This document shows, piece by piece, positions 42,358-54,991 of a stretch of DNA of 64,000 bases; positions within the stretch are counted from its first letter, which is position 1, and the number at the start of each line of letters is the position of its first letter. Under the pieces are notes generated by a model that did not search any database, was not told where the DNA came from, and saw nothing but the letters and a program-made list of their open reading frames with translations. The stretch spans positions 1-64,000 of the forward strand of contig JBBIML010000011.1 in assembly GCA_037444405.1 (NCBI GenBank), in the 5' to 3' direction. The DNA is from Armatimonadota bacterium (GTDB lineage Bacteria > Armatimonadota > Fimbriimonadia > Fimbriimonadales > GBS-DC). The position numbers and the translations under genes were made by a program.

Positions 42358-45168
42358 TTAAAACTGGAAATTCAGGTTGGCGTCCAGTGAGCGGGCGCGG
42401 TAGCTGTACTGGCGGTACTGTGGGTCGAGGTTCAATTGCTCGCGGAAGCGATAGCTCAATACAAACGAGAGATTGCGCGCGATTCGGTACTCGTAGCCGA
42501 AGTTGAACAGCGTATCGCGCGACGCCAGATAGCCGCGCAGGTCGGTGCGCTGCCACTCGGCGAACAGGCTCTGATTCTTGCCAATCGCGTAGCTGGCGCG
42601 GAACGCCAGCCCGACAGGTTGCTGGGTGAACGCGCCGGGCGTGCTGCCGAACCCCTCACCCAGCACGCTGCGCGTGGTCATCTGATAAAAGCTCAGGTTG
42701 AAGGTCCATCGGTTCAGCGGTCCGATTTCCGCCGTGAGCGAGAGGTATTCATTATTCGAGCTGCCCGTCGCGGTGAGAAACCGCACATCCTGTCGTGACC
42801 AGTTCGCGTTCAATGAGAGCCACTCGAACGGCAGGTAGCTGATGCCCACATTGAGCGCGCGCTGTTCGCTGTTGGTCTGAAAGTCGCCGGCGGAGCGCTG
42901 GATGCTTGCCTGCACATCGACGGAGACGGTATCGAGGGGCGTCCAGCGGATGCTCAGGTCGTGCCCTTTGCCGCGCACGCCGAAGTAGGTGTAGCCGCTG
43001 TAGAAGGGTGCGCCTGACGAGAAGCCGTTGCCGTTGTAGCCGACGCCCCACGGGTTCTGGAAGCCGTTCCCGAACGGCGGCTGGAAGCCGCCCGTCTGAC
43101 GCGAGCGCCCGATAAAATCGCTGCCCAGTCGCCCCGAATCGAGGTCGCTCCAGCGGTAGCTGACCTCCAGCCGATCGGATGGTCGCCAGGAGGCGCTCAG
43201 GCTGAAATCGCGTGCCCGTGAAGCTGAGCCAGACTGATTGACATTGCTAACAGCGGCGGTGCCCTGCAGGCTCAAGCGCGGGTTGACCGTCCAGTCCACT
43301 CGTGCCCGCAGGCTCTGAATCCGATAGGTCTGCAGGGTGGGGTTGCCCTGCGTGCCCTGAAAGCGTGCGGTCGCCTCCGTGCGGTCATAACCCAGCGAGA
43401 AGTTCACGCGCTTCCATGTGCGCCCGATGCTGATGGAATCGATGGTCTGCTGATTGTGGCTGCCGGTTGAAGTGGCACGGTTGAGGGTGCGTGTGAGGCT
43501 CAGGCTAAAGCCGTTCGCGGGCGCGTGCGACAGGGTGTAGGTCTGGATATCGGTGTCGGTGAAGCTGGTGCTGAAACCGCCGCTGAGCGGGTTGAGCGAC
43601 GCGACGCGCGACTGGCTCCAGTTGAGCTGGAACTGGGTCGCACTGCCCAGCCGATAGGCGAGGCTGCTGCGGTGCCCCGTCTCGTTGCGGCGGAAGCCTG
43701 TCGATTCGATGCCGATAAACTCGGCGGGGATGCGGTAGTAGCTGCTGTTCAGGTTAAGCCGACCAAAGTTGGACTTTATTTCGCCGATATGGGCGATTCC
43801 TTCCAGCGATGTGGTGAGCGCCTGCGCCCGACTGCGAGCCACATTCCATGCGAGACTCCCCACCTTGCCCAGCGGCAGGGTGATGTCCAGCCCCACCACC
43901 TCGCGGTCGCCGCCAATCGTGGAACCCGGATCGGGCAGCGGCGTGTAGGTCACCTGCACAATCAGATTCTGCGGGATGAAGCGCGTGAAGAAGAAGCGAT
44001 AGGGCAGCACAGGGTCAAAATAGTAGTCTTCCCCTTCGCGCTGGGGCACGCCTGCCACCAGCACCGTGATGGGATGGGCGCTGTCGCGCAGGGGCGGAAA
44101 CTCAAGGTCGTAGGGCACACTGGGCGCGCCCCGCCCGTAAAACTGCTCCGTCCTTGTGCGTAATCCCAGCCCCCCGCGCACCTTCTGGCTCAGCATGCTG
44201 ATGCCCAGATTGATGCCCTGGCCCAGACTGGTTTCCAGTCGCCAGCCCTCCAGTCGGCTCGGACGCGAGTTGAAAGCGTAGGTCTCATAGGTCACCACGA
44301 TTGTGGAGGTGCGCGGGATAATCATTCCCTCGCGGAACTGTAGGATGCCCGCATAGTAGTCGATGGTGTAGTCCTCGCCGCGCCGTTTCTCGACGCCATC
44401 GACCTGCACGCGCTCGCTACCGTCCACAATCTGGCTGCCCTGCAGGTAATAGGGGCCGGGGCTGTCGTTGCCCTGGATGGTGATGGTACGCGCGGCGGCT
44501 TTGGTCTCGGAGGTGATGTAGCGCATGGAGCTGCGCCCGAACTTCGCAGTAGCGATTGCGCCTTTCAGCGTGCGGTTGAACGCCACCAGCTGATTGGAAC
44601 CGCCCAGAATCGCGTTAATATCGCCCCACTCCAGCGTGAAGTTCGGCGATTCATAGGTCCAGGTGATGCGGGAGTCGAACGGGTTGCGGAAGCGGCTGTT
44701 GCTCCAGCGCCAGTCGAAGCTGAACAGTCCGAACAGCCGATCGACGCGGATGCTGAGGTCGGTGTAGTCGGTGGTGCGTTGACCGCCCTGGCCGTAGTAG
44801 TTCTGGTCGCGGAAGGAGGCGGTGTCGCCCTCCACCTGATGCAGATGGAAGCCCATCGTTTTGCGCCCGCTGATGGTGACGCGCTCGCGCAGCTCCTGTT
44901 CAAAGGCGTCCCATGAGCGCAGGGCGTTCCGAATCGCGTCCAGCGTGTTGCGCCGTCCAGCACGGGCATGGACAGGTGGCTGATTAGGCGGGCGATTTGG
45001 GGGTGGGTTCTCTGGCGGCGCTTTCCAGCCGAAGTAGTCGGCGACCTCCTTGGGAATGGTGATGACAGGCAGCGGCACCTGCGACCAGCCTGCTGACCAG
45101 AGTCCCATCAGCAGGCTCACAAGCCCCGCGCACCCGATAGTGCTAACCCCTGTCAGATGCCGCCTCAT
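42358..45168 (-). CDS. Large outer-membrane beta-barrel protein
   Basis: Signal peptide, many alternating aromatic/polar strands, C-terminal ...LNFQF; GSERVQVDG..RGEDYTIDY..G repeat-like segments. Confidence 0.75.
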   Translation of the reverse strand: MRRHLTGVSTIGCAGLVSLLMGLWSAGWSQVPLPVITIPKEVADYFGWKAPPENPPPNRPPNQPPVHARAGRRNTLDAIRNALRSWDAFEQELRERVTISGRKTMGFHLHQVEGDTASFRDQNYYGQGGQRTTDYTDLSIRVDRLFGLFSFDWRWSNSRFRNPFDSRITWTYESPNFTLEWGDINAILGGSNQLVAFNRTLKGAIATAKFGRSSMRYITSETKAAARTITIQGNDSPGPYYLQGSQIVDGSERVQVDGVEKRRGEDYTIDYYAGILQFREGMIIPRTSTIVVTYETYAFNSRPSRLEGWRLETSLGQGINLGISMLSQKVRGGLGLRTRTEQFYGRGAPSVPYDLEFPPLRDSAHPITVLVAGVPQREGEDYYFDPVLPYRFFFTRFIPQNLIVQVTYTPLPDPGSTIGGDREVVGLDITLPLGKVGSLAWNVARSRAQALTTSLEGIAHIGEIKSNFGRLNLNSSYYRIPAEFIGIESTGFRRNETGHRSSLAYRLGSATQFQLNWSQSRVASLNPLSGGFSTSFTDTDIQTYTLSHAPANGFSLSLTRTLNRATSTGSHNQQTIDSISIGRTWKRVNFSLGYDRTEATARFQGTQGNPTLQTYRIQSLRARVDWTVNPRLSLQGTAAVSNVNQSGSASRARDFSLSASWRPSDRLEVSYRWSDLDSGRLGSDFIGRSRQTGGFQPPFGNGFQNPWGVGYNGNGFSSGAPFYSGYTYFGVRGKGHDLSIRWTPLDTVSVDVQASIQRSAGDFQTNSEQRALNVGISYLPFEWLSLNANWSRQDVRFLTATGSSNNEYLSLTAEIGPLNRWTFNLSFYQMTTRSVLGEGFGSTPGAFTQQPVGLAFRASYAIGKNQSLFAEWQRTDLRGYLASRDTLFNFGYEYRIARNLSFVLSYRFREQLNLDPQYRQYSYRARSLDANLNFQF

Positions 45169-45232
45169 CACCCTCGATTATATTTTAGACGCTCGAACCC
45201 CGCTCATGGAATGCCGTTCTGGTGGCTGGCAC

Positions 45233-45272
45233 AAAAAGAGGACCGGGTGCGAGGGGGGCAACACCCGGTCCT
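45233..45272 (-). terminator. Intrinsic terminator of groESL
   Basis: AGGACCGGGTG...CACCCGGTCCT stem followed on the minus strand by CTTTTT. Confidence 0.7.
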
Positions 45273-45297
45273 TGGGGGTGGGAGGGGAAGGAAAGGC

Positions 45298-46935
<1,638 letters not shown>

Positions 46936-47223
46936 CTATTCGCGAATAGCGAAGATTTGATCCTCATCCAGAATGAGATACTTCTTGCCGTCATATTCGA
47001 ACTCGTTGCCCGCATATTTGGAGAAGACCACGCGCTGTCCAACCTGCACGCTCATCGGGGCGCGCTCGCCGTTTTTGAGCAGTCGTCCCGGTCCGACGGC
47101 GACGACAACCCCCTCTTGCGGACGCTTTTTAGCGGTATCGGGCAGAATAATACCCGCGCTGGTCTTCTCATCTTCCTCTATCAGCTCCACCACAACCTTG
47201 TCACCAAGCGGTTTGAAAGTCAT
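46936..47223 (-). CDS. groES: Co-chaperonin GroES
   Basis: [26 protein letters not shown]. Confidence 0.98.
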
Positions 47224-47371
47224 ACATCTCACCTCCTTCGAAAGTCTGGAATAAAACGCTCAGGCACGCGGCTTGCGTGTCGCCTTAATATATACCTGAT
47301 GCGGGATGGGGGTTGTCAAGGGGTGGGGAGGGTGTTCGAAAATTCGGGGCATAATATCGACCTGAGCGAAG

Positions 47372-47458
47372 CCCCCTCACCCATACCCTCTCCCTCAAAG
47401 GGGGAGAGGGGGCTTAGTTTCTCCCTCTCCCCAGCGGGGAGAGGGTCGGGGTGAGAGG
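47372..47458. repeat. Composite boxC-like palindromic repeat
   Basis: CCCCCTCACCCATACCCTCTCCC...GGGAGAGGG...CCCTCTCCCC-agc-GGGGAGAGGG-tcGGGGTGAGAGG; same layout as 3744-3836. Confidence 0.85.
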
Positions 47459-47554: not shown

Positions 47555-47619
47555 AAACGGTGTCATTAGGCTGAGCAGGTCTAATGACCTCATAAATGCG
47601 GTCAACGGGAGGAGATACA

Positions 47620-49602
47620 ATGAAAAGCTGGCTGAAGTACCTGACTGGAGCTGTGGTGTTGATTGTGGTGATCGCGATTGTGCTGGTAGTGCGCAATATG
47701 CGCCAGACGGCTCTACCAGCTGGTTTACCTGCAGACGCGCTGTCAGTTGCACGCGAGCGCGGTCTGACCCCCGACGATGTGTATGCTGCGCTGGCGACCT
47801 ATGTGCCAGGCGGCAAACCCGACGAGTATGTGATGTTCGCCTCGGCTGGACACGGCGGACAGGTGATCGCCATCGGCATCCCCTCGATGCGCATTCTGAA
47901 GGTGATCGCCGTGTTCGCTCCGGAACCGTGGCAGGGCTATGGCTATGGTGTGAAGGAGAACCCGCTCCATGAGCTGTACGGGCGTGGTCCCTATCCCGCT
48001 GCGGACACGCATCACCCCGCCTTGAGTGAGACCAACGGCGAATATGATGGGCAGTTCCTGTTCATCGGTGATAAGGCGAACGGGCGCGTTGCCGTGATCG
48101 ACCTGCGCGACTGGGAGACCAAGCAGATTGTGAAGAACCCCGTGTTCGAGAACAACCACGGCGCGGCGTTCGTCACGCCCAACACCGAGTATGTGGTGGA
48201 GGTCTCGCAATACGGCTTACCGCTGGGCAACAAATACGCGCCGATCGAGCGCTACAAGGAGGAGTATCGCGGGCTGATTACTTTCTGGAAGTTCGACCGC
48301 AAGAAGGGGCGGATTATCCCGGAGCAGTCGTTCGGCATCGAGGTGCCGCCTTACTGGCAGGACCTTGCCGATTGCGGTAAGGCTGCCAGCGACGGCTGGG
48401 TGTTCGTGAACTCCTTCAACACCGAGCTGGCGACAGGCGGCATCGAGAAGGGTCGGCCGCCCTTCGAAGCGGGCGTTTCCCAGAACGACATGGACTACCT
48501 CCATATCATCAACTGGAAGCAGGCGGAGAAACTGGTTCAGCAGGGCAAGTTCGTCACCATTAATGGCTTCAAGGTGCTGCCGCTGAAGGAGGCGGTCGCG
48601 GGTGGCGTGCTTTACTTTACTCCTGAGCCGAAAAGCCCGCACGGCGTCGATGTGTGCCCCTGCGGGAAGCATATCGTGGTCGGCGGCAAGTTAGACCCGC
48701 ATGTCACCATCTACAACATCGAGAAGATTAAGCAGGCGATTGCCCGCAAGGACTACGAGAAGATCGACCCGTACGGTGTGCCCGTGCTGCGATTCGACGC
48801 CACCAAAGAGGCGCAGGTGGAGGTGGGGCTGGGACCGCTGCACACCCAGTTCGACGACAAGGGCTACGCCTACACCAGCCTGTTCCTGGACACGGCGGTC
48901 GCCCGCTGGACGCTGGGCGATTGCAAATACAAAGCGCCGGAAGAGCCGTGGAAGCTGGTGGGCAAGATTCAGACCCACTACAACATCGGGCACCTCGCCG
49001 TAACGGAGGGCGACACGGTCAACCCGCAGGGCAAGTACCTCGTCGCGCTCAACAAGTGGTCGGTGGACCGCTTTGCGAACGCTGGTCCGCTGCTGCCGCA
49101 GAACCTGCAGCTGATTGATGTTAGCAACACGGGCGAGACTATGCGCCTGCTGTACGATATGCCTGTGGGCATCGGTGAGCCGCACTATGCCCAGATTATC
49201 CGCGCCGACCGCCTGAAGAGCTGGGAGGTCTACCCCGAAGTCGGCTGGGACGCGCACCAGCAGGCGAAAAGCCCGCATGCCGCGACCAAAGGGCGCGTCG
49301 AGGTGCGCGGCAATACCGTCACGATTTACCAGACGCAGATCCGCAGCCACTTCGAGCCGGAGCATATCAAGGTGAAGAAGGGTCAGCGGGTCATCTGGCA
49401 TCTTACCAACCTGGAGCGCACGCGCGACGCCACTCACGGCTTCACCCTGCCCGGCTACGGGATCAGCGCGAGCATCGAACCCGGTGAGACCGTCACGATT
49501 GAGTTCGTGGCGGATAAGGAAGGGGTCTACTCCTTCTACTGCACGGAGTTCTGCTCCGCGCTGCACCTGGAGATGATGGGCTATCTGCTGGTGGAGCCGT
49601 GA
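47620..49602 (+). CDS. nosZ: Nitrous oxide reductase, clade II (Sec-type, no twin-arginine signal)
   Basis: CuZ His motifs DTHHP, NHG, PKSPHG, GPLH, IGH, EPH; CuA motif HGF...CTEFCSALHLEM; hydrophobic N-terminus without RR. Confidence 0.97.
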   Translation: MKSWLKYLTGAVVLIVVIAIVLVVRNMRQTALPAGLPADALSVARERGLTPDDVYAALATYVPGGKPDEYVMFASAGHGGQVIAIGIPSMRILKVIAVFAPEPWQGYGYGVKENPLHELYGRGPYPAADTHHPALSETNGEYDGQFLFIGDKANGRVAVIDLRDWETKQIVKNPVFENNHGAAFVTPNTEYVVEVSQYGLPLGNKYAPIERYKEEYRGLITFWKFDRKKGRIIPEQSFGIEVPPYWQDLADCGKAASDGWVFVNSFNTELATGGIEKGRPPFEAGVSQNDMDYLHIINWKQAEKLVQQGKFVTINGFKVLPLKEAVAGGVLYFTPEPKSPHGVDVCPCGKHIVVGGKLDPHVTIYNIEKIKQAIARKDYEKIDPYGVPVLRFDATKEAQVEVGLGPLHTQFDDKGYAYTSLFLDTAVARWTLGDCKYKAPEEPWKLVGKIQTHYNIGHLAVTEGDTVNPQGKYLVALNKWSVDRFANAGPLLPQNLQLIDVSNTGETMRLLYDMPVGIGEPHYAQIIRADRLKSWEVYPEVGWDAHQQAKSPHAATKGRVEVRGNTVTIYQTQIRSHFEPEHIKVKKGQRVIWHLTNLERTRDATHGFTLPGYGISASIEPGETVTIEFVADKEGVYSFYCTEFCSALHLEMMGYLLVEP

Positions 49603-49671
49603 GACCTCTCCACTGGGGGCAGGGGACGCCCCCCTGCCCCACTTTTTGGACGCACGCCCAAAAGCAAGATC

Positions 49672-49782
49672 GGGCATCCTGCCCAAGATGGAATAAAGTA
49701 GCCCGGGCATCCTGCCCGGGATGAGGCAAAGTGGCTTGAGCATTCTGCTCAAGGGATTTCACAGGCAAGATGCCTGTGCTAC
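49672..49782. repeat. Cluster of four GTAG-type REP palindromes
   Basis: GGGCATCCTGCCC (49672), GTAGCCCGGGCATCCTGCCCGGG (49698), GTGGCTTGAGCATTCTGCTCAAG (49731), inverted CACAGGCAAGATGCCTGTGCTAC (49760). Confidence 0.85.
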
Positions 49783-49812
49783 GACGAAAGAGTCTGGTGA
49801 GGAGGAATAACT

Positions 49813-52800
49813 ATGGCAACAACTGGTCACTGTCCAAGAGAGGTTCGAAACAAAGTGATGCTGGGCGTCGCGGCGTTGCTGGTGTTCATCTCCATCTGGC
49901 TGCCCTACTGGCAGATGCACATCGTCGCGCCGCAGTACCCGAAAGGGTTGAATGTGATTGTCTATGTAACGGGCGCAGGCGGCGATGTGCGCGAGGTGGA
50001 TGGACTGAACCACTATATCGGCATGCGTCCACTGGGCGAGGCGGCGCCTTTTGAACGCAAAATCTCGGTGCCCGGTTTGAGCGCGATTGCGCTTGCGCTG
50101 CTTTTCATCATGCTCATTCCGCGCGCCCCACGCTGGTTCCAGATTCTGCTGGCGTTGCCCGTGTGGGCGGTTCCGTTCGTGTTCGCAGGCGACCTCTACT
50201 ACTGGTTGCGTGAATACGGCTTGAATCTGGACCCTAAAGCGCCGCTGAGCGCGATGATCAAGCCCTTTATCCCGCCGCTGGTCGGACCAGGCAAGGTGGG
50301 ACAGTTCCATGTGATTGCGTGGTTCCATATCGGCTACTTTGTGGTGATCGCAGCGGGCGTGCTGACGCTGATTGCCATCCGGCAGCGGTTCCGGTGTGAG
50401 CAGTTGCGGCAGGCGGTGCCAGCGATAGCGAAAGCTGCTGCCGCGCTCCTGCTGATGGTCGTTCTGCCGAACGGCTGGGCGCACGAATGGGTCATCAGCC
50501 CACAAAGCGACCAGAGCCTGCAGGCGGTCATCCAGCAGGCGCGGGCAGGCGACACCATTCGGGTGATTGGCGGCGAATATCGGGGCAACTTCATCGTTGA
50601 CAAGACGCTCACTCTGGTGGGCGAGCGCTCCCCCGTCCTCGACGGCGAGCGGCGGGGGAGCGTCATTCACCTCAAAGCGCCCCGATGCGTCCTCAAGGGC
50701 TTCATCATTCGCAACAGCGGTATCACGCTCAGCACCCAGGATAGCGGCGTGCGGGTCTCCGCACCCAATTGTATCGTGGAAAACAATCGCATCGAGCAGG
50801 TGCTGTTCGGCGTCCATCTGGAGCATGCCGACCGAACAGTTATTCGCAATAACGAAATCTATTCGCATGACCTGCCCATCGCTCGACGCGGCGACCAGAT
50901 TCGAATCTGGTACAGCCACCACACCCTTGTGGAGGGCAATCAGGTGGTGGGCGGGCGCGATCTGGTCTTCTGGTATTCGGAGGGGCTGACCATCCGCAAC
51001 AATCGCGTGCGCAACAGCCGCTACGGTATCCACTTCATGTATTGTAACGATAGCCATGTGGAGAGCAACCTGCTGGAGAACAACTCGGTGGGCATCTACA
51101 TTATGTATAGCGAGGGGGTGCAGGTGCGCGGGAATCAGATTCTGAACTCGCGCGGACCGAGCGGTATGGGGCTGGGCATTAAAGACGGCTACCGCCTGCT
51201 GATTGAAAAGAATCTGGTTGCGCACAATCGCACGGGGTTATTTATTGACAGCGGGGAAGGGGTCTATCGAGAGAACTGGTTTCTGCGCAACGATGTGGGC
51301 ATCCATCTGGTGTTGGCGGTGAAGCCGAACCGTTTTGAGGCGAATCGGATGGTGGAGAATATCGAGATGGTGCGGATGGATCGCCCCGATTCGGTGGCGG
51401 GCGTGCGCTGGGAGGGCAACTTCTGGAGCGATTACACGGGCTATGACGCGAATGGCGATGGCGTCGGCGATGTGCCCTATCGGGCGGTGAGGGTTTTCGA
51501 TCAGATTGCGGCGCAGAATGCGGCGTTGCGCCTGCTGGCGTACAGCCCATCGGCACAGGCGCTCGATTTCGGGGCGCGGCTGTTCCCGCTCTTTGCGCCA
51601 CAACCGCTGGTGGCAGATGCGCGTCCGCTGGTGCGGGCGGGCGAGCCGCCACGCCCGATGAGTCCAGCCCAGACACCCTCGCGAGCGAAGGGGCTGCTGT
51701 TCATGGCAGGGCTGCTCGCGCTCGGTCTGTTGAGCCTGCGGACGCCGGGCACCTCGCGAGCGGGAAAGTACCGCCCCATCACGAATGGAAAGCCATCCCG
51801 GAAGTCGCTCATGAGCCGTTCAGCGAAGCCCGCAATGGTGATTCGAGTGGAGCATCTGACCCGGCGATTTGGCAGGCTGGTGGCGGTGGATGATCTCACC
51901 TTCGGCGTGCGCGCGGGCGAGACGGTCGCGCTCTGGGGCGCGAATGGCGCGGGCAAGACCACCATCCTGCGCTGCCTGCTCGGACTGCTGCGCTTTGAGG
52001 GGTCGGCATCGGTGCTGGGCTATTCGGTCAAACAGCAGGGCACCGCTGTCCGTCAGCGTGTCGGCTATGTGCCCCAGCTTGTTCACCTGCATCCCGATAT
52101 GAGCGTGCAGGAGACCGCCCAATTTTATGCGCAGTTGCGCGGCGTTTCAGCGGAGCGTGCCGATGCCCTCCTACGGGAGTGGGGCTTGAGCGAGCATGCT
52201 GACAAACCCGTGAGCGCGCTCTCTGGCGGCATGAAGCAGAAGCTTGCGCTGGTACTGGCGCTGCTGTCCGACCCGCCTGTGCTGCTGCTGGATGAGCCGA
52301 CCGCCCATCTGGACACCGCCGCCCGCGCCGAATGGCTCCAGCTGCTGCAACGGCTCAAAGCGCAGGGCAAAACGCTGCTGTTCTGCACGCACCAGTTCAA
52401 CGAGGTGCGCACGCTTGCCGATCGGGTGGTGGTGCTGGAGCGCGGGCGCAAGGTGGCGGAGCTGACAGGTGCGCAGTTCGTCGCGCTCTGGCAACGGCAT
52501 GGCAGCCTGCGATTGTCTGTGCCCCAGGAGCAGGTGCAGGTCGCCATCGGGATTCTCAAGCAAGCAGGCTACGATGCGCAAGCCGTCGACGGTGTCCTGC
52601 TGATTCGCCATCTGGAGGCGAAGCAGGTGGAACCGCTCAGCCGACTGCTGCAGGGAGGCATCGAGGTGCTGGATTACGAGTGGCGTCCGCCCAGCGAGCC
52701 GCCCGACTGGAGCCAGATTCCCGAATCGGTACGCTTCGCGGCTCTGACCTCCTCACTTGACGATACACACCCCAACCCCCAGCATAAAGGAGAGAAACCC

Positions 52801-53634
52801 CCCTTGCGGCGTGTGGTGGGGTTAATCGCAGGCAAAGAGATACGCGACGCCCGCCGCAACCGCTGGCTGGTGCTGCTGATGGGCGTCTTTATTCTGCTGT
52901 CGCTGCTGTTGACCCTGTTCGGGCTGACGGGCGCAGGCGCGGGCAGCATGGCGGGCTTCGGGCGCACCTTCGCCAGTCTGCTCAACTTATCGCTGTTGAT
53001 TGTGCCGCTGATGGGACTGCTGATGGGCGCGCTGAGCATCGCTTCCGAACGCGATCAGCGCACGCTGGACACCCTGCTGGCTCAACCGCTCACCCCCGCG
53101 TCGATTCTTGCGGGCAAGCTGCTCGGCGCCATGCTCGCCCTCAGCGCCGCTGTCCTGATCGGCTTCGGCAGCAGCGGGTTGCTCATCTACATGGCGGGTG
53201 CGAATCTGCCCCTGACGCCCTTCCTGACCCAGCTCCTGCTCACCATCCTGCTGGGATGGGGCTGCCTGTCGCTGGGCACGCTCGTGTCGGTGCTGGTGAA
53301 GCGGGGTGCAACGGCGGTCGGTATCGCCCTCCTGCTTTGGCTGATGCTGGTGTTCGTCAGCGATCTGGGGCTGATCGGCACAGCCATCGCGCTCCAGCTG
53401 AGGGCGTCCACCCTGCTCTGGCTGACCCTGCTCAACCCGCTGCAGGTGTTCAAGCTTGCCGTGATCCAGGTGATGGAGGGCAATCTGGAGGTGCTGGGTT
53501 CGGCAGGGCTGTACGCGCGCGAGGTGATGGGTGATGCGATTTTACCCATCCTGTCGGGTATCCTTCTGATGTGGGTCGCGGTTCCGTTACTGCTCGCGCT
53601 GCTCTGGTTCGTGCGCCGGGGAGCAGTCGAATGA
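49813..53634 (+). CDS. Fused NosB-NosD-NosF-NosY N2O reductase maturation protein
   Basis: APQYP..GL and LNHYIGM (NosB); RYGIHFMY and GNFWSDY.GYD..GDG.GD (NosD); GANGAGKTT, LSGGM, LLLDEPT (NosF); KEIRDARRNRW and multi-TM region (NosY); no stop codon in 1273 codons. Confidence 0.9.
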   Translation: MATTGHCPREVRNKVMLGVAALLVFISIWLPYWQMHIVAPQYPKGLNVIVYVTGAGGDVREVDGLNHYIGMRPLGEAAPFERKISVPGLSAIALALLFIMLIPRAPRWFQILLALPVWAVPFVFAGDLYYWLREYGLNLDPKAPLSAMIKPFIPPLVGPGKVGQFHVIAWFHIGYFVVIAAGVLTLIAIRQRFRCEQLRQAVPAIAKAAAALLLMVVLPNGWAHEWVISPQSDQSLQAVIQQARAGDTIRVIGGEYRGNFIVDKTLTLVGERSPVLDGERRGSVIHLKAPRCVLKGFIIRNSGITLSTQDSGVRVSAPNCIVENNRIEQVLFGVHLEHADRTVIRNNEIYSHDLPIARRGDQIRIWYSHHTLVEGNQVVGGRDLVFWYSEGLTIRNNRVRNSRYGIHFMYCNDSHVESNLLENNSVGIYIMYSEGVQVRGNQILNSRGPSGMGLGIKDGYRLLIEKNLVAHNRTGLFIDSGEGVYRENWFLRNDVGIHLVLAVKPNRFEANRMVENIEMVRMDRPDSVAGVRWEGNFWSDYTGYDANGDGVGDVPYRAVRVFDQIAAQNAALRLLAYSPSAQALDFGARLFPLFAPQPLVADARPLVRAGEPPRPMSPAQTPSRAKGLLFMAGLLALGLLSLRTPGTSRAGKYRPITNGKPSRKSLMSRSAKPAMVIRVEHLTRRFGRLVAVDDLTFGVRAGETVALWGANGAGKTTILRCLLGLLRFEGSASVLGYSVKQQGTAVRQRVGYVPQLVHLHPDMSVQETAQFYAQLRGVSAERADALLREWGLSEHADKPVSALSGGMKQKLALVLALLSDPPVLLLDEPTAHLDTAARAEWLQLLQRLKAQGKTLLFCTHQFNEVRTLADRVVVLERGRKVAELTGAQFVALWQRHGSLRLSVPQEQVQVAIGILKQAGYDAQAVDGVLLIRHLEAKQVEPLSRLLQGGIEVLDYEWRPPSEPPDWSQIPESVRFAALTSSLDDTHPNPQHKGEKPPLRRVVGLIAGKEIRDARRNRWLVLLMGVFILLSLLLTLFGLTGAGAGSMAGFGRTFASLLNLSLLIVPLMGLLMGALSIASERDQRTLDTLLAQPLTPASILAGKLLGAMLALSAAVLIGFGSSGLLIYMAGANLPLTPFLTQLLLTILLGWGCLSLGTLVSVLVKRGATAVGIALLLWLMLVFVSDLGLIGTAIALQLRASTLLWLTLLNPLQVFKLAVIQVMEGNLEVLGSAGLYAREVMGDAILPILSGILLMWVAVPLLLALLWFVRRGAVE

Positions 53635-53696: not shown

Positions 53697-54146
53697 ATGA
53701 GGACCTGTCCGCTCCTGATGTTGGCGTTGATCGCGGGCTGTCAGCCAGCGGATCGCCCGCCCACCATTCGCTACGGGGAGGACGCCTGCGCGAACTGCCG
53801 CATGATTATCAACGAGCCGCCCTACGCCTGCGCCGTTGAAACCGAGCAGGGCGAACTGCGCAAATACGACGACCTCAACTGCATGGTGCTGGACAGCACG
53901 CGCATTAAGCCCCGGCGCTACTGGGTGCATGACTTCGAAAAGCCTGACCGCTGGCTGGACGGCACGCGGGCGTTCTATGTGCGGGCGGACCATCTTCAGA
54001 CGCCGATGGGCAGCCGCACGATTGCTCTTGCGACGCGCGAGCAGGCGGAGCGCAAAGCGCGCGAACTCAACGGCAGGGTGTTCACTTTCGAGCAGATTCG
54101 GCAGGAACTCCTGCCGAAAAAACAACCTTCAGAGAGCAGGAGGTGA
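53697..54146 (+). CDS. nosL: Copper chaperone lipoprotein NosL
   Basis: Lipobox IAGC, CANCRMII, DDLNCM, TPMG; GGGAGG before ATG 53697. Confidence 0.9.
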   Translation: MRTCPLLMLALIAGCQPADRPPTIRYGEDACANCRMIINEPPYACAVETEQGELRKYDDLNCMVLDSTRIKPRRYWVHDFEKPDRWLDGTRAFYVRADHLQTPMGSRTIALATREQAERKARELNGRVFTFEQIRQELLPKKQPSESRR

Positions 54147-54151
54147 AGAGG

Positions 54152-54991
54152 ATGGAACGATGGACATATTTCTGGGCGAAGCGCGTTGCCCTCTGGGGCG
54201 CAATCGCGCTGATGGTCGTGATGTTCACCAGTTGCAGAGGCGGTCAGCAGCAGCAACAGGGTCAGCAGCCTGCTGCTCCGCAGGCGCCGTCGGCGCCAAC
54301 CGGTCAACCGGCTGCAACCGCACCGACGCCGCCACCTGCCCCCACCGATGGCACAGCCACCATCTTCGGGCTGGTCAAGTTCGAAGGCACGCCGCCCAAG
54401 CCAGAACCCATCAGCTTCGGCGCGGAACTGCAGTGCGCTGCCATGCACCCCACACCGCCCACCAAAGAAGACCTGGTGGTGAACCCCAACGGCACCCTGC
54501 GCTGGACGCTGGTCTATGTGAAGGCGGGACTGCCTGCCGATTACAAACCGAGCGTGCCTTCCGAGCCTGTCGTGCTGGATCAAAAAGGGTGCGTGTTTAT
54601 TCCCCATGTGGTAGCCGTGATGGCGGGGCAGGAGATAATCTTCCGCAACAGCGACCCCGTGCTGCACAACACGCGCGGCACATCCAAAAACAACGGCAGC
54701 TTCAACTACACTCAGCCGAAGCAGGGTGAAGAAACCCGCCATGTGTTCAAAAACCCTGAACTGGGCATCAAAACCGTGTGTGATGTGCATCCGTGGATGG
54801 TCAGCTACATCCATGTGCTGTCGAACCCCTTCTTCGCCGTGATGGGCGAGGACGGCAGCTTCACCATCAAGGGTCTCCCGCCTGGCAAATACACGCTGGA
54901 GTTCGTCCACGAGAAGCTGGGCACGCGCACCGTCGAGGTGGAGGCGAAAGCGAACGCCGTCACTCAAACGGAGGTGGCGTTCAAGCAGTAG
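54152..54991 (+). CDS. Lipoprotein with a cupredoxin-like site and carboxypeptidase-regulatory-like domain
   Basis: Lipobox FTSC, Gln/Pro/Ala linker, DQKGCVF.PHV, NSD..LHN, CDVHPWM. Confidence 0.8.
   Translation: MERWTYFWAKRVALWGAIALMVVMFTSCRGGQQQQQGQQPAAPQAPSAPTGQPAATAPTPPPAPTDGTATIFGLVKFEGTPPKPEPISFGAELQCAAMHPTPPTKEDLVVNPNGTLRWTLVYVKAGLPADYKPSVPSEPVVLDQKGCVFIPHVVAVMAGQEIIFRNSDPVLHNTRGTSKNNGSFNYTQPKQGEETRHVFKNPELGIKTVCDVHPWMVSYIHVLSNPFFAVMGEDGSFTIKGLPPGKYTLEFVHEKLGTRTVEVEAKANAVTQTEVAFKQ

Follow-up and report, generated by a model that had tools for sequence, protein, structure and literature searches.

The fused nosBDFY gene and its domains

Nitrous oxide reductase (NosZ) is, to our knowledge, the only known enzyme sink for N2O, and the Nos helper proteins normally load copper into it. 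We analyzed the first 64,000 nucleotides of contig JBBIML010000011.1 from an Armatimonadota bacterium (assembly GCA_037444405.1; this whole stretch of DNA is referred to here as the window) and focused on one gene for such helpers. At 49813–53634 of the forward strand, on which all features described below lie unless stated otherwise, NosB, NosD, NosF and NosY are encoded together in one open reading frame (ORF), nosBDFY, of 1273 codons plus stop, which starts with ATG 210 nt past the stop of a Sec-type, clade II nosZ. The frame is translated without internal stop and recurs at full length in relatives. An earlier note on this DNA had read it as one uninterrupted 1273-aa frame; that reading is correct, and its coordinates agree with ours for each part, with deviations of no more than a few codons. 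The comparisons reported below confirm that 49813–53634 is a genuine, vertically inherited nosB-nosD-nosF-nosY fusion conserved in its family.

The first part of the product is a NosB-like domain (aa 1–190; 49813–50382) with four transmembrane (TM) helices, a periplasmic beta-sheet and the motif LNHYIGM at aa 65–71, as judged from hydropathy, an AlphaFold2 (AF2) model and stand-alone homologues. It is followed by a signal-peptide-like junction (aa 201–224; 50413–50484), recognized from sequence, hydropathy and alignment, with a putative cleavage point after G-W-A and before HEW. The NosD periplasmic beta-helix comes next (aa 225–612; 50485–51648). It matched TIGR04247 with 403.1 bits (cut-off 300; residues 236–608 against model positions 1–377), was modelled by AF2 with a predicted local distance difference test score (pLDDT) of about 95, and had 7o0y_A and 7osf_A as its top Foldseek matches (E ~3e-16, TM-score 0.76–0.80 on target). 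In a phmmer search of PDB sequences the NosD part also matched 7o0y_A (E 1.1e-33). Past NosD lies a membrane anchor (aa 624–645; 51682–51747), seen in hydropathy and built by AF2 as a helix at 624–642, and then a K/R-rich cytoplasmic linker.

The NosF ABC ATPase occupies aa 669–960 (51817–52692). Pfam ABC_tran covered residues 693–831 (109.7 bits), NCBIfam matches began at about 669, and 7o0y_B was matched at E 3.4e-38. The Walker A (GANGAGKTT, G709–T717), signature (LSGGMKQK, L803–K810) and Walker B (LLLDEPT, L824–D834) motifs and the switch H860 are invariant in 15 aligned proteins (alignment A1: 15 of the 28 proteins with the order B-D-F-Y or D-F-Y, query included; domain orders are written here by the last letters of the Nos names). 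The best bacterial PDB chain with a single nucleotide-binding domain (NBD) was NosF of P. stutzeri, generic ABC families scored equally well or better, and no NosF-specific model was present in the NCBIfam top 25 for this part. It is assigned to NosF by its fused context. The NosY ABC-2 permease (aa 1004–1273; 52822–53631) has six TM helices and matched PF12679 (ABC2_membrane_2) with 94.2 bits over residues 1005–1269. P. stutzeri NosY (7o0y_D) was the sole PDB sequence match at E<=0.01, with E 1.7e-24 and 9–274 aligned against 6–274.

Kyte-Doolittle hydropathy gave peaks at 15–33, 84–102, 111–129 and 171–189 in NosB, at 201–219 in the joint, at 627–645 in the anchor, and at 1019–1037, 1059–1077, 1098–1116, 1144–1162, 1170–1188 and 1246–1264 in NosY. 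Short K/R-rich loops (1–14, RAPR at 104–107, RQRFRCEQLRQ at 190–200 and the stretch past 645) lie on the predicted cytoplasmic side. Because of these 12 hydrophobic segments and K/R-rich inside loops, the two NosB loops and NosD are predicted to be outside and NosF inside, with NosY in its normal N-in orientation; the coherent topology proposed in the earlier note, with NosD outside and NosF inside, is thereby borne out. AF2 was run on residues 1–660 with alignment A2 (92 fusions, including 91 of 107 NosB-containing matches) and gave a mean pLDDT of 90.3 and a predicted TM-score (pTM) of 0.68, with NosB and NosD confident. Foldseek with this 660-residue model returned NosD-type beta-helices only.

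Conservation of the fusion in related genomes and in sequencing runs

We searched 5.8 billion protein cluster representatives (length 700–2228 aa) and obtained 434 matches, of which the best 120, namely the query and 119 others, were used. The query was then split into four segments and each was compared by BLAST with the 119 listed matches. As a result, 20 of them have the order B-D-F-Y, 7 D-F-Y, 84 B-D-F, 5 D-F and 3 B-D. The 20 B-D-F-Y clusters, formed at 90% identity, are 49–77% identical to the query, and their 145 members come from assemblies in NCBI, JGI, ENA and Logan. In 18 of the 20 the protein is 1268–1310 aa long; of the two shorter ones, one is a truncated record and the other has part of NosD missing.

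We also searched 40 relative genomes of the same order with the fused protein. All three genomes of the same genus contain a stop-free match over 1–1273 (G002 91%, G001 77% and G003 76% identity), so that the gene is not split among close relatives. Two other genera of the family yielded stop-free full-length matches as well, with 65% identity in G011 and G013, and 51% in the 1300-aa ORF of G008. G015 holds fragments of the fusion at contig ends, and in G012 and G022 a separate NosB gene is followed by a fused D-F-Y gene. The remaining 30 of the 40 genomes gave generic ABC ATPase matches only with this query. In a sample of 401 genomes of the phylum (G000 included), 10 had a match at E<=1e-50: two with B-D-F-Y (G000 and G002), six with B-D-F and a NosY match of its own, one with D-F and one fully unfused. 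ORFs were inspected in two of the six B-D-F genomes. In G170 the order is nosZ, B-D-F (962 aa) and nosY with a 4-nt overlap. Open frames of 1489–1494 aa had suggested a four-way fusion in G196 and G232, which we rejected, as the ORFs of G196, the genome checked in this respect, are a B-D-F gene (965 aa) and NosY in separate frames.

In alignment A1 the domains are conserved, and the three linkers keep the frame although they differ in length and sequence. The in-frame linkers conserved across genera make the fusion real at all three junctions, as had been claimed before. No second copy of NosB, NosD or NosY was found in the organism's own genome, an assembly of 40 contigs.

Sequencing support was checked at the level of Logan contigs, using four DNA runs (X1–X4) of one study; no RNA runs holding the stretch are listed beside these four. 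An X1 contig covers the stretch from end to end with 0 differences; this run may be the source sample. Contigs of X2 and X3 cover pieces with 0–1 differences, and X4 is a strain variant. Between them, the pieces of X2–X4 take in the B-D joint, the F-Y joint and most of the D-F one, and no indel is listed in any run. For X4, 39 private substitutions are listed: 26 synonymous and 13 non-synonymous, none of which creates a stop. Third codon positions account for 25 of the 39. Apparent loose ends and two "joints" at about 52225–52436 were discarded, being due to unrelated contigs that share 20–24 bases of the ABC core.

A graded series of nos fusions

A quick IQ-TREE tree of the NosD domain was built from 119 rows, that is, the query and 118 matches (P0030, with a NosD match of fewer than 300 residues, was left out), and was midpoint-rooted for drawing only. 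The B-D-F-Y and D-F-Y proteins form one clade of 27 rows (SH-aLRT 99), in which the B-D-F-Y proteins P0027–29 branch first. The seven D-F-Y rows are one group (99) nested among B-D-F-Y, and the sister group of the 27-row clade consists of five B-D-F rows (87). The simplest history suggested by these sequences would start from B-D-F, pass through a single capture of NosY and end, in the lineage of G012 and G022, with NosB splitting off again at precisely the signal-peptide joint. B-D-F-Y is the end point and the most complete member of a graded, widespread fusion series.

NosB is fused to NosD in 107 of the 119 listed relatives, which upholds the proposal that NosB is linked to the maturation machine, and a D-F link (in D-F, B-D-F, D-F-Y or B-D-F-Y) is present in 116 of them. 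Moreover, in 22 B-D-F matches (P0031–P0050, P0054 and P0094; about 1143–1188 aa, plus one truncated record among them) NosB and NosD are separated by an insert of 212–213 residues that has five hydrophobic segments. All 22 group together in a single clade of the NosD tree, where 21 were labelled B-B-D-F by length, the 22nd being the truncated record. The P0036 insert is clearly another copy of NosB that has diverged (...FPYWRV...REVDKLNRDIGMR...GLNLDP...) with LNRDIGM replacing LNHYIGM, so that its order is B-B'-D-F.

The NosB domain

NosB reportedly was described from the nos cluster of Wolinella succinogenes by Hein, Witt and Simon in 2017, and either electron transfer or copper handling has been argued as its role. 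No Pfam or NCBIfam model matched residues 1–200 of the fused protein. At E<=0.001 the NosB part matched 1471 stand-alone proteins, which are about 215 aa long and all lack a Pfam domain. Its neighbours in the ESM Atlas are unnamed clusters of about 200–214 aa, found most often in Gemmatimonadota and Thermomicrobiota. Neither Pfam nor NCBIfam has a model for this family, although it counts more than 1400 stand-alone members; their sources call them "hypothetical" or mislabel them "cytochrome C" or "copper chaperone NosL".

In the accessible part of PMC9697520 the motifs LNHYIGM and YGHN are quoted for NosB, and the number of TM helices is given there and in the available text of bioRxiv 10.1101/2024.05.17.594689 as four (or six). 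NosB is cited as essential for N2O respiration in Wolinella succinogenes in the portions available of PMC9697520 and PMC13274427. Here LNHYIGM (65–71) is invariant in 121 homologues, and the second motif, at about 135–138, reads YGLN. The residues invariant in these 121 sequences include P31, W33, APQYPxGL (A39–L46), D58, E61, LNHYIGMR (L65–R72), E81, D127, W131, N138 and P151–P155; in the wider fusion alignment H67 is less than 90% conserved. No heme, Fe-S or Cys motif was found among the conserved residues.

Folded alone by AF2 with 120 stand-alone homologues (alignment A3), NosB reached a pLDDT of 89.7 and a pTM of 0.84. The model has helices at 10–27, 74–101, 107–137 and 173–199 and a five-stranded sheet to which both periplasmic loops contribute. 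Foldseek against the PDB returned claudins and TARP-type subunits (best E 4.9e-4, TM-score 0.4–0.55). In VIA-align against 48,161 chains the top 12 were tetraspans of the claudin/TARP/MP20/GARLH/DUOXA1 type (Z 9.3–11.6, rmsd 3.1–5.1, 138–172 residues aligned), with generic helix bundles next at Z<=8.7, although at such Z-scores a match between helical bundles may reflect their arrangement alone. NosB had no match when PDB sequences were searched with a profile, and its identity to the tetraspan chains is 7–12%. The likeness to claudins and TARPs is, on the predicted models, best taken as a resemblance of fold rather than as family membership. Since there is no cofactor motif among the conserved residues, and given the fold and the fusion partners, NosD here and NosL in print, NosB is most likely an auxiliary or scaffold membrane subunit of copper-site maturation rather than a component of electron transfer.

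The NosB-NosD joint: signal peptide or permanent helix

The joint reads ...RQRFRCEQLRQAVPAIAK / AAAALLLMVVL / PNGWA / HEWVISP. It has a positive n-region (K207), an h-region of about 12 residues (AAAALLLMVVL), a polar c-region (PNGWA) with Pro, and small residues at -3/-1 (G-W-A); the first NosD strand starts about 5 residues past the h-region. In alignment A1 the joint falls in the same columns as the signal peptides with which the unfused D-F-Y proteins P0022, P0024 and P0025 begin (e.g. ...LLPTAVCA/KEW). AF2 gave residues 202–220 a pLDDT below 50 and no secondary structure, while all other helices were confident. Since the secondary split in G012 and G022 falls exactly here and left a working N-terminal signal peptide, the segment appears to be a signal peptide still.

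We then compared 108 B-D joints, query included. In 104 of them a single hydrophobic segment precedes NosD, or five do where NosB is in tandem. The last 12 residues contain the -3/-1 pattern in 94 joints, whereas 500 shuffles of matched composition averaged 68 (sd 4.5) and never exceeded 84; exact A-x-A is present in 41, with a shuffle average of 25.7 and a highest value of 37. The significance of both is overstated because the joints are related to one another; in control stretches of 12 residues past NosD, A-x-A was seen in 7 of 115. As the joint keeps all marks of a cleavable Sec signal peptide, we consider it somewhat probable that signal peptidase I cuts it and frees NosB from a NosD-anchor-NosF-NosY chain, the signal segment staying on NosB as a fifth helix.

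The strongest alternative is a one-piece polypeptide in which 201–219 is a permanent fifth helix and a homodimer carries two tethered NosB and two tethered NosD round NosF2Y2, the architecture put forward in the earlier note. In its favour are the single frame with a coherent 12-segment topology and the long retention of the fusion, at identities down to 51%; P0012, with a 20-residue insertion past the hydrophobic segment, would have a longer tether. Moreover, the A-x-A of P0006, P0008 and P0016, members of the window's own genus, is poor or absent, and processing therefore may not be conserved within that genus. This also weighs against cleavage, together with the facts that cleavage is deduced from rules of thumb applied to sequence and that a low pLDDT is no proof of a signal peptide; for the wider model, expression, dimerisation and the room for two NosD are likewise predictions. 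A permanent helix, however, is hard to reconcile with an h-region too short for a stable span, with only about 5 residues between it and the first NosD strand, with the enrichment of the -3/-1 pattern over composition-matched shuffles, with the missing AF2 helix, and with the split that turned this very segment into an N-terminal signal peptide. We regard the uncleaved form as the less probable of the two, with a real but minor share of the likelihood. Of the proposed homodimer we thus retain the two tethered NosD and doubt the two tethered NosB.

The NosF-NosY linker and possible internal starts

The linker between NosF and NosY contains a Shine-Dalgarno (SD)-like island, AAAGGAGAG (52786–52794; K992-G993-E994), found by nucleotide comparison of loci. 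It is identical at 9 of 9 nt in six of nine loci examined, from two genera, while the linker is otherwise variable; among 154 triplets of invariant residues only one is identical at 9 of 9 nt in those six loci. GGA is a minor Gly codon here (14 of 118). The island could be a relic ribosome-binding site (RBS), an internal start or a programmed pause. In a B-D-F relative with separate nosY the nosF stop overlaps the nosY ATG and the upstream sequence is different, so AAAGGAGAG cannot be traced to an ancestral RBS.

Internal starts might also yield free NosY or NosF-NosY, and so restore fewer NosD than NosF and NosY. This would fit the nucleotide identity of the island within a variable linker, the TTG that lies 9 nt past it in the window, and the Met found within about 12 residues before the NosF core in 11 of the 15 aligned proteins. 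However, the TTG is CTG in the 91%-identical relative and is missing in L010, L011 and L014, and no conserved in-frame ATG, GTG or TTG stands at a usable distance past the island among the loci examined. For NosF, no SD-like motif of at least 4 bases precedes M662 or M670, the start candidates in the window, and free NosY alone would leave the NosD:NosF ratio unchanged. We therefore consider mixed products improbable.

Least of all is to be said for the view that sequencing or assembly errors, or a recent loss of stop codons, joined four separate genes: the 40-contig assembly and a GC content of 57–68%, which lengthens chance open frames, would allow it, but it is contradicted by the stop-free full-length frame that recurs in six further species-level genomes, of the same genus and of others, and in 20 more clusters of independently assembled sequences, by the X1–X4 contigs, by the excess of synonymous changes in the strain variant and by intact catalytic motifs, and we judge it extremely improbable.

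NosD anchoring, stoichiometry and proposed mechanism

A hydrophobic segment followed by K/R is found past NosD in 15 of the 15 aligned proteins. The unfused NosD of G042 also has the anchor (its match runs to query residue 647), from which it follows that in this phylum NosD was anchored at its C-terminus before the fusion arose. P. stutzeri NosD aligns to residue 609 only and ends 14 residues later. According to the accessible part of PMC13685413, the characterised complex has the stoichiometry NosD1F2Y2 and relays Cu(I) from NosL to NosD to NosZ under ATP control, which agrees with the earlier statement of one NosD on NosF2Y2. In the fused protein NosD is covalently joined 1:1 with NosF(-NosY), which implies another stoichiometry, namely two NosD per F2Y2 as against one in the solved Pseudomonas complex; the same would hold for each of the 116 listed matches with a D-F link.

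The explanation that we favour overall, with modest confidence, is as follows. The 1273-residue product would be inserted co-translationally through its 12 hydrophobic segments, beginning with the four NosB helices (N-terminus in) and the signal-peptide-like segment, which would carry NosD out to fold in the periplasm. The anchor at aa 624–645 would act as a stop-transfer sequence and return the chain to the cytoplasm, where NosF would fold, and the six NosY helices would follow in the usual N-in manner. We infer that signal peptidase I then cuts past G-W-A, at about residue 223, leaving a five-helix NosB and a NosD-anchor-NosF-NosY chain. The latter would dimerise via NosF and NosY like an ABCG-type half transporter and work like Pseudomonas NosDFY, passing Cu(I) from NosL to NosD to apo-NosZ under ATP control; such a dimer would carry two NosD instead of the one in NosD1F2Y2. 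NosB, made in a fixed 1:1 amount, would serve as an auxiliary membrane subunit of the maturation machine.

A broader and distinctly speculative extension, which we think rather unlikely to hold as a whole, is that clade II N2O reducers of several phyla use a machine unlike the Pseudomonas paradigm, with two anchored NosD per NosF2Y2 and a claudin-fold NosB, made at the head of a polyprotein and clipped by signal peptidase, as a stoichiometric fourth subunit that docks NosD or NosL at the membrane. The Armatimonadota B-D-F-Y protein would then be the whole machine in one chain, and the conserved SD-like site would be a pause that times NosY insertion.

Neighbouring genes of the nos cluster

The order of the cluster is nosZ, nosBDFY, nosL and a cupredoxin-like gene. 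The nosZ gene (47596–49602) encodes a Sec-dependent, clade II nitrous oxide reductase of 668 aa that matched TIGR04246 with 839.5 bits (cut-off 625) and the Pfam nos_propeller and cupredoxin domains. Directly past its stop, folding of 49603–49812 revealed a GC-rich hairpin followed by a U-run (about 49616–49648), which is terminator-like and presumed to function as such. It is the first stem of a hairpin series that fills the 210-nt spacer; 3–4 further stem-loops are built on GGGCA-N3-TGCCC-like palindromes. The fold of the spacer has a minimum free energy of -95.1 kcal/mol (z -4.96), and none of 200 shuffles was equally stable. These hairpins may act as a leaky terminator or as a stabiliser and so keep nosZ high relative to the accessory genes. 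A Shine-Dalgarno sequence, GGAGG (49801–49805), stands 7 nt 5' of the ATG at 49813.

Downstream, nosL (53697–54146) encodes a copper chaperone lipoprotein (Pfam NosL, E 3.5e-12; lipobox LIAGC), with M43 of the listed ORF as its probable start. The next gene (54143–54991) encodes a 282-aa lipoprotein with the lipobox FTSC, a weak match to the blue type-1 copper domain of 5fc9_A (E 0.0021) and a CarboxypepD_reg-like C-terminus. The pattern His...Cys-x2-His-x2-Met is present in this product. An orthologue with 47% identity occupies the same place in the nos cluster of G008. Since no cytochrome c or NosGH genes were found near this nos cluster, the lipoprotein can be guessed to be a candidate electron donor to NosZ. 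Upstream, the 765-aa ORF at 45157–47454 was considered as a nos gene and rejected; it is a noise translation antisense to a GroEL/Cpn60 gene on the reverse strand (45298–46932).

Literature and significance

No description of a NosB-NosD, NosD-NosF or four-way fusion was found in full-text searches of PMC (8.1 million papers) and bioRxiv (0.36 million preprints), subscription journals not being covered. The fusions mentioned in the available parts of PMC9697520, bioRxiv 10.1101/2024.05.17.594689, PMC11828985, PMC3475470, bioRxiv 10.64898/2025.12.16.694761, PMC13685413 and PMC13274427 are NosB-NosL or unrelated ones only. The proteins themselves are present in NCBI and JGI, where the B-D-F form is common; the supposed novelty applies to the literature and not to the databases. 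There the four-way fusions bear names such as [quoted passage not shown], [quoted passage not shown] and "MAG: ... [Armatimonadota bacterium]". Because they are named "NosD" or "YxlF", gene-presence surveys would score nosF, nosY and nosB as missing in these genomes. What is new is a series of fusions among clade II nos accessory genes of which no description was found; the underlying system is known, and the biology is not of a new kind.

Among organisms that are not denitrifiers, those of clade II are the main consumers of N2O. For their accessory genes the series (B-D, B-D-F, B-B-D-F and B-D-F-Y, beside the published B-L) is Rosetta-stone evidence that places NosB with the copper-delivery ABC machine and not with an electron-transfer chain. 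The covalent NosD-NosF(-NosY) link predicts 2:2:2, in conflict with the solved 1:2:2, and makes the model of docking and hand-over directly testable, and the single-chain version is a stoichiometrically defined target for structural biology.

Comparison with known systems

An NBD followed by a permease is the ordinary order of ABC-2 and ABCG half transporters. The NosF-NosY part has this order and, like them, must dimerise. Unlike them, the fused protein also has a NosB module, a periplasmic beta-helix on the N-terminal side and an anchor helix, and its substrate relay is presumed, with the accessible text of PMC13685413, to be periplasmic instead of running across the membrane.

The model of NosB resembles the claudin/TARP/PMP22 tetraspans in its four-helix bundle and in the two outer loops that form a beta-sheet. 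However, those families are eukaryotic, the low identity given above separates them from NosB, and the likeness is possibly convergent and does not imply function. Clade II NosB is a polytopic four-helix membrane protein with LNHYIGM whose gene stands directly after clade II nosZ, as here. The NosB-NosL fusions of Dyadobacter and Flavobacterium, published in PMC9697520 as far as its accessible part goes, are the same kind of evidence, with a copper-maturation partner; they differ in that the partner here is NosD, and through NosD also NosF and NosY, and in that YGHN reads YGLN.

The system most similar to ours is NosDFY(L) of P. stutzeri (PDB 7O0Y). Both have the NosD, NosF and NosY families, in both nosL adjoins, and the same ATP-driven Cu(I) relay is presumed. 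In P. stutzeri, however, there are three separate chains, a soluble NosD, the stoichiometry D1F2Y2 and a clade I, Tat-exported NosZ, whereas here one gene encodes an anchored NosD covalently joined 1:1:1, with NosB in front, beside a Sec-type clade II NosZ.

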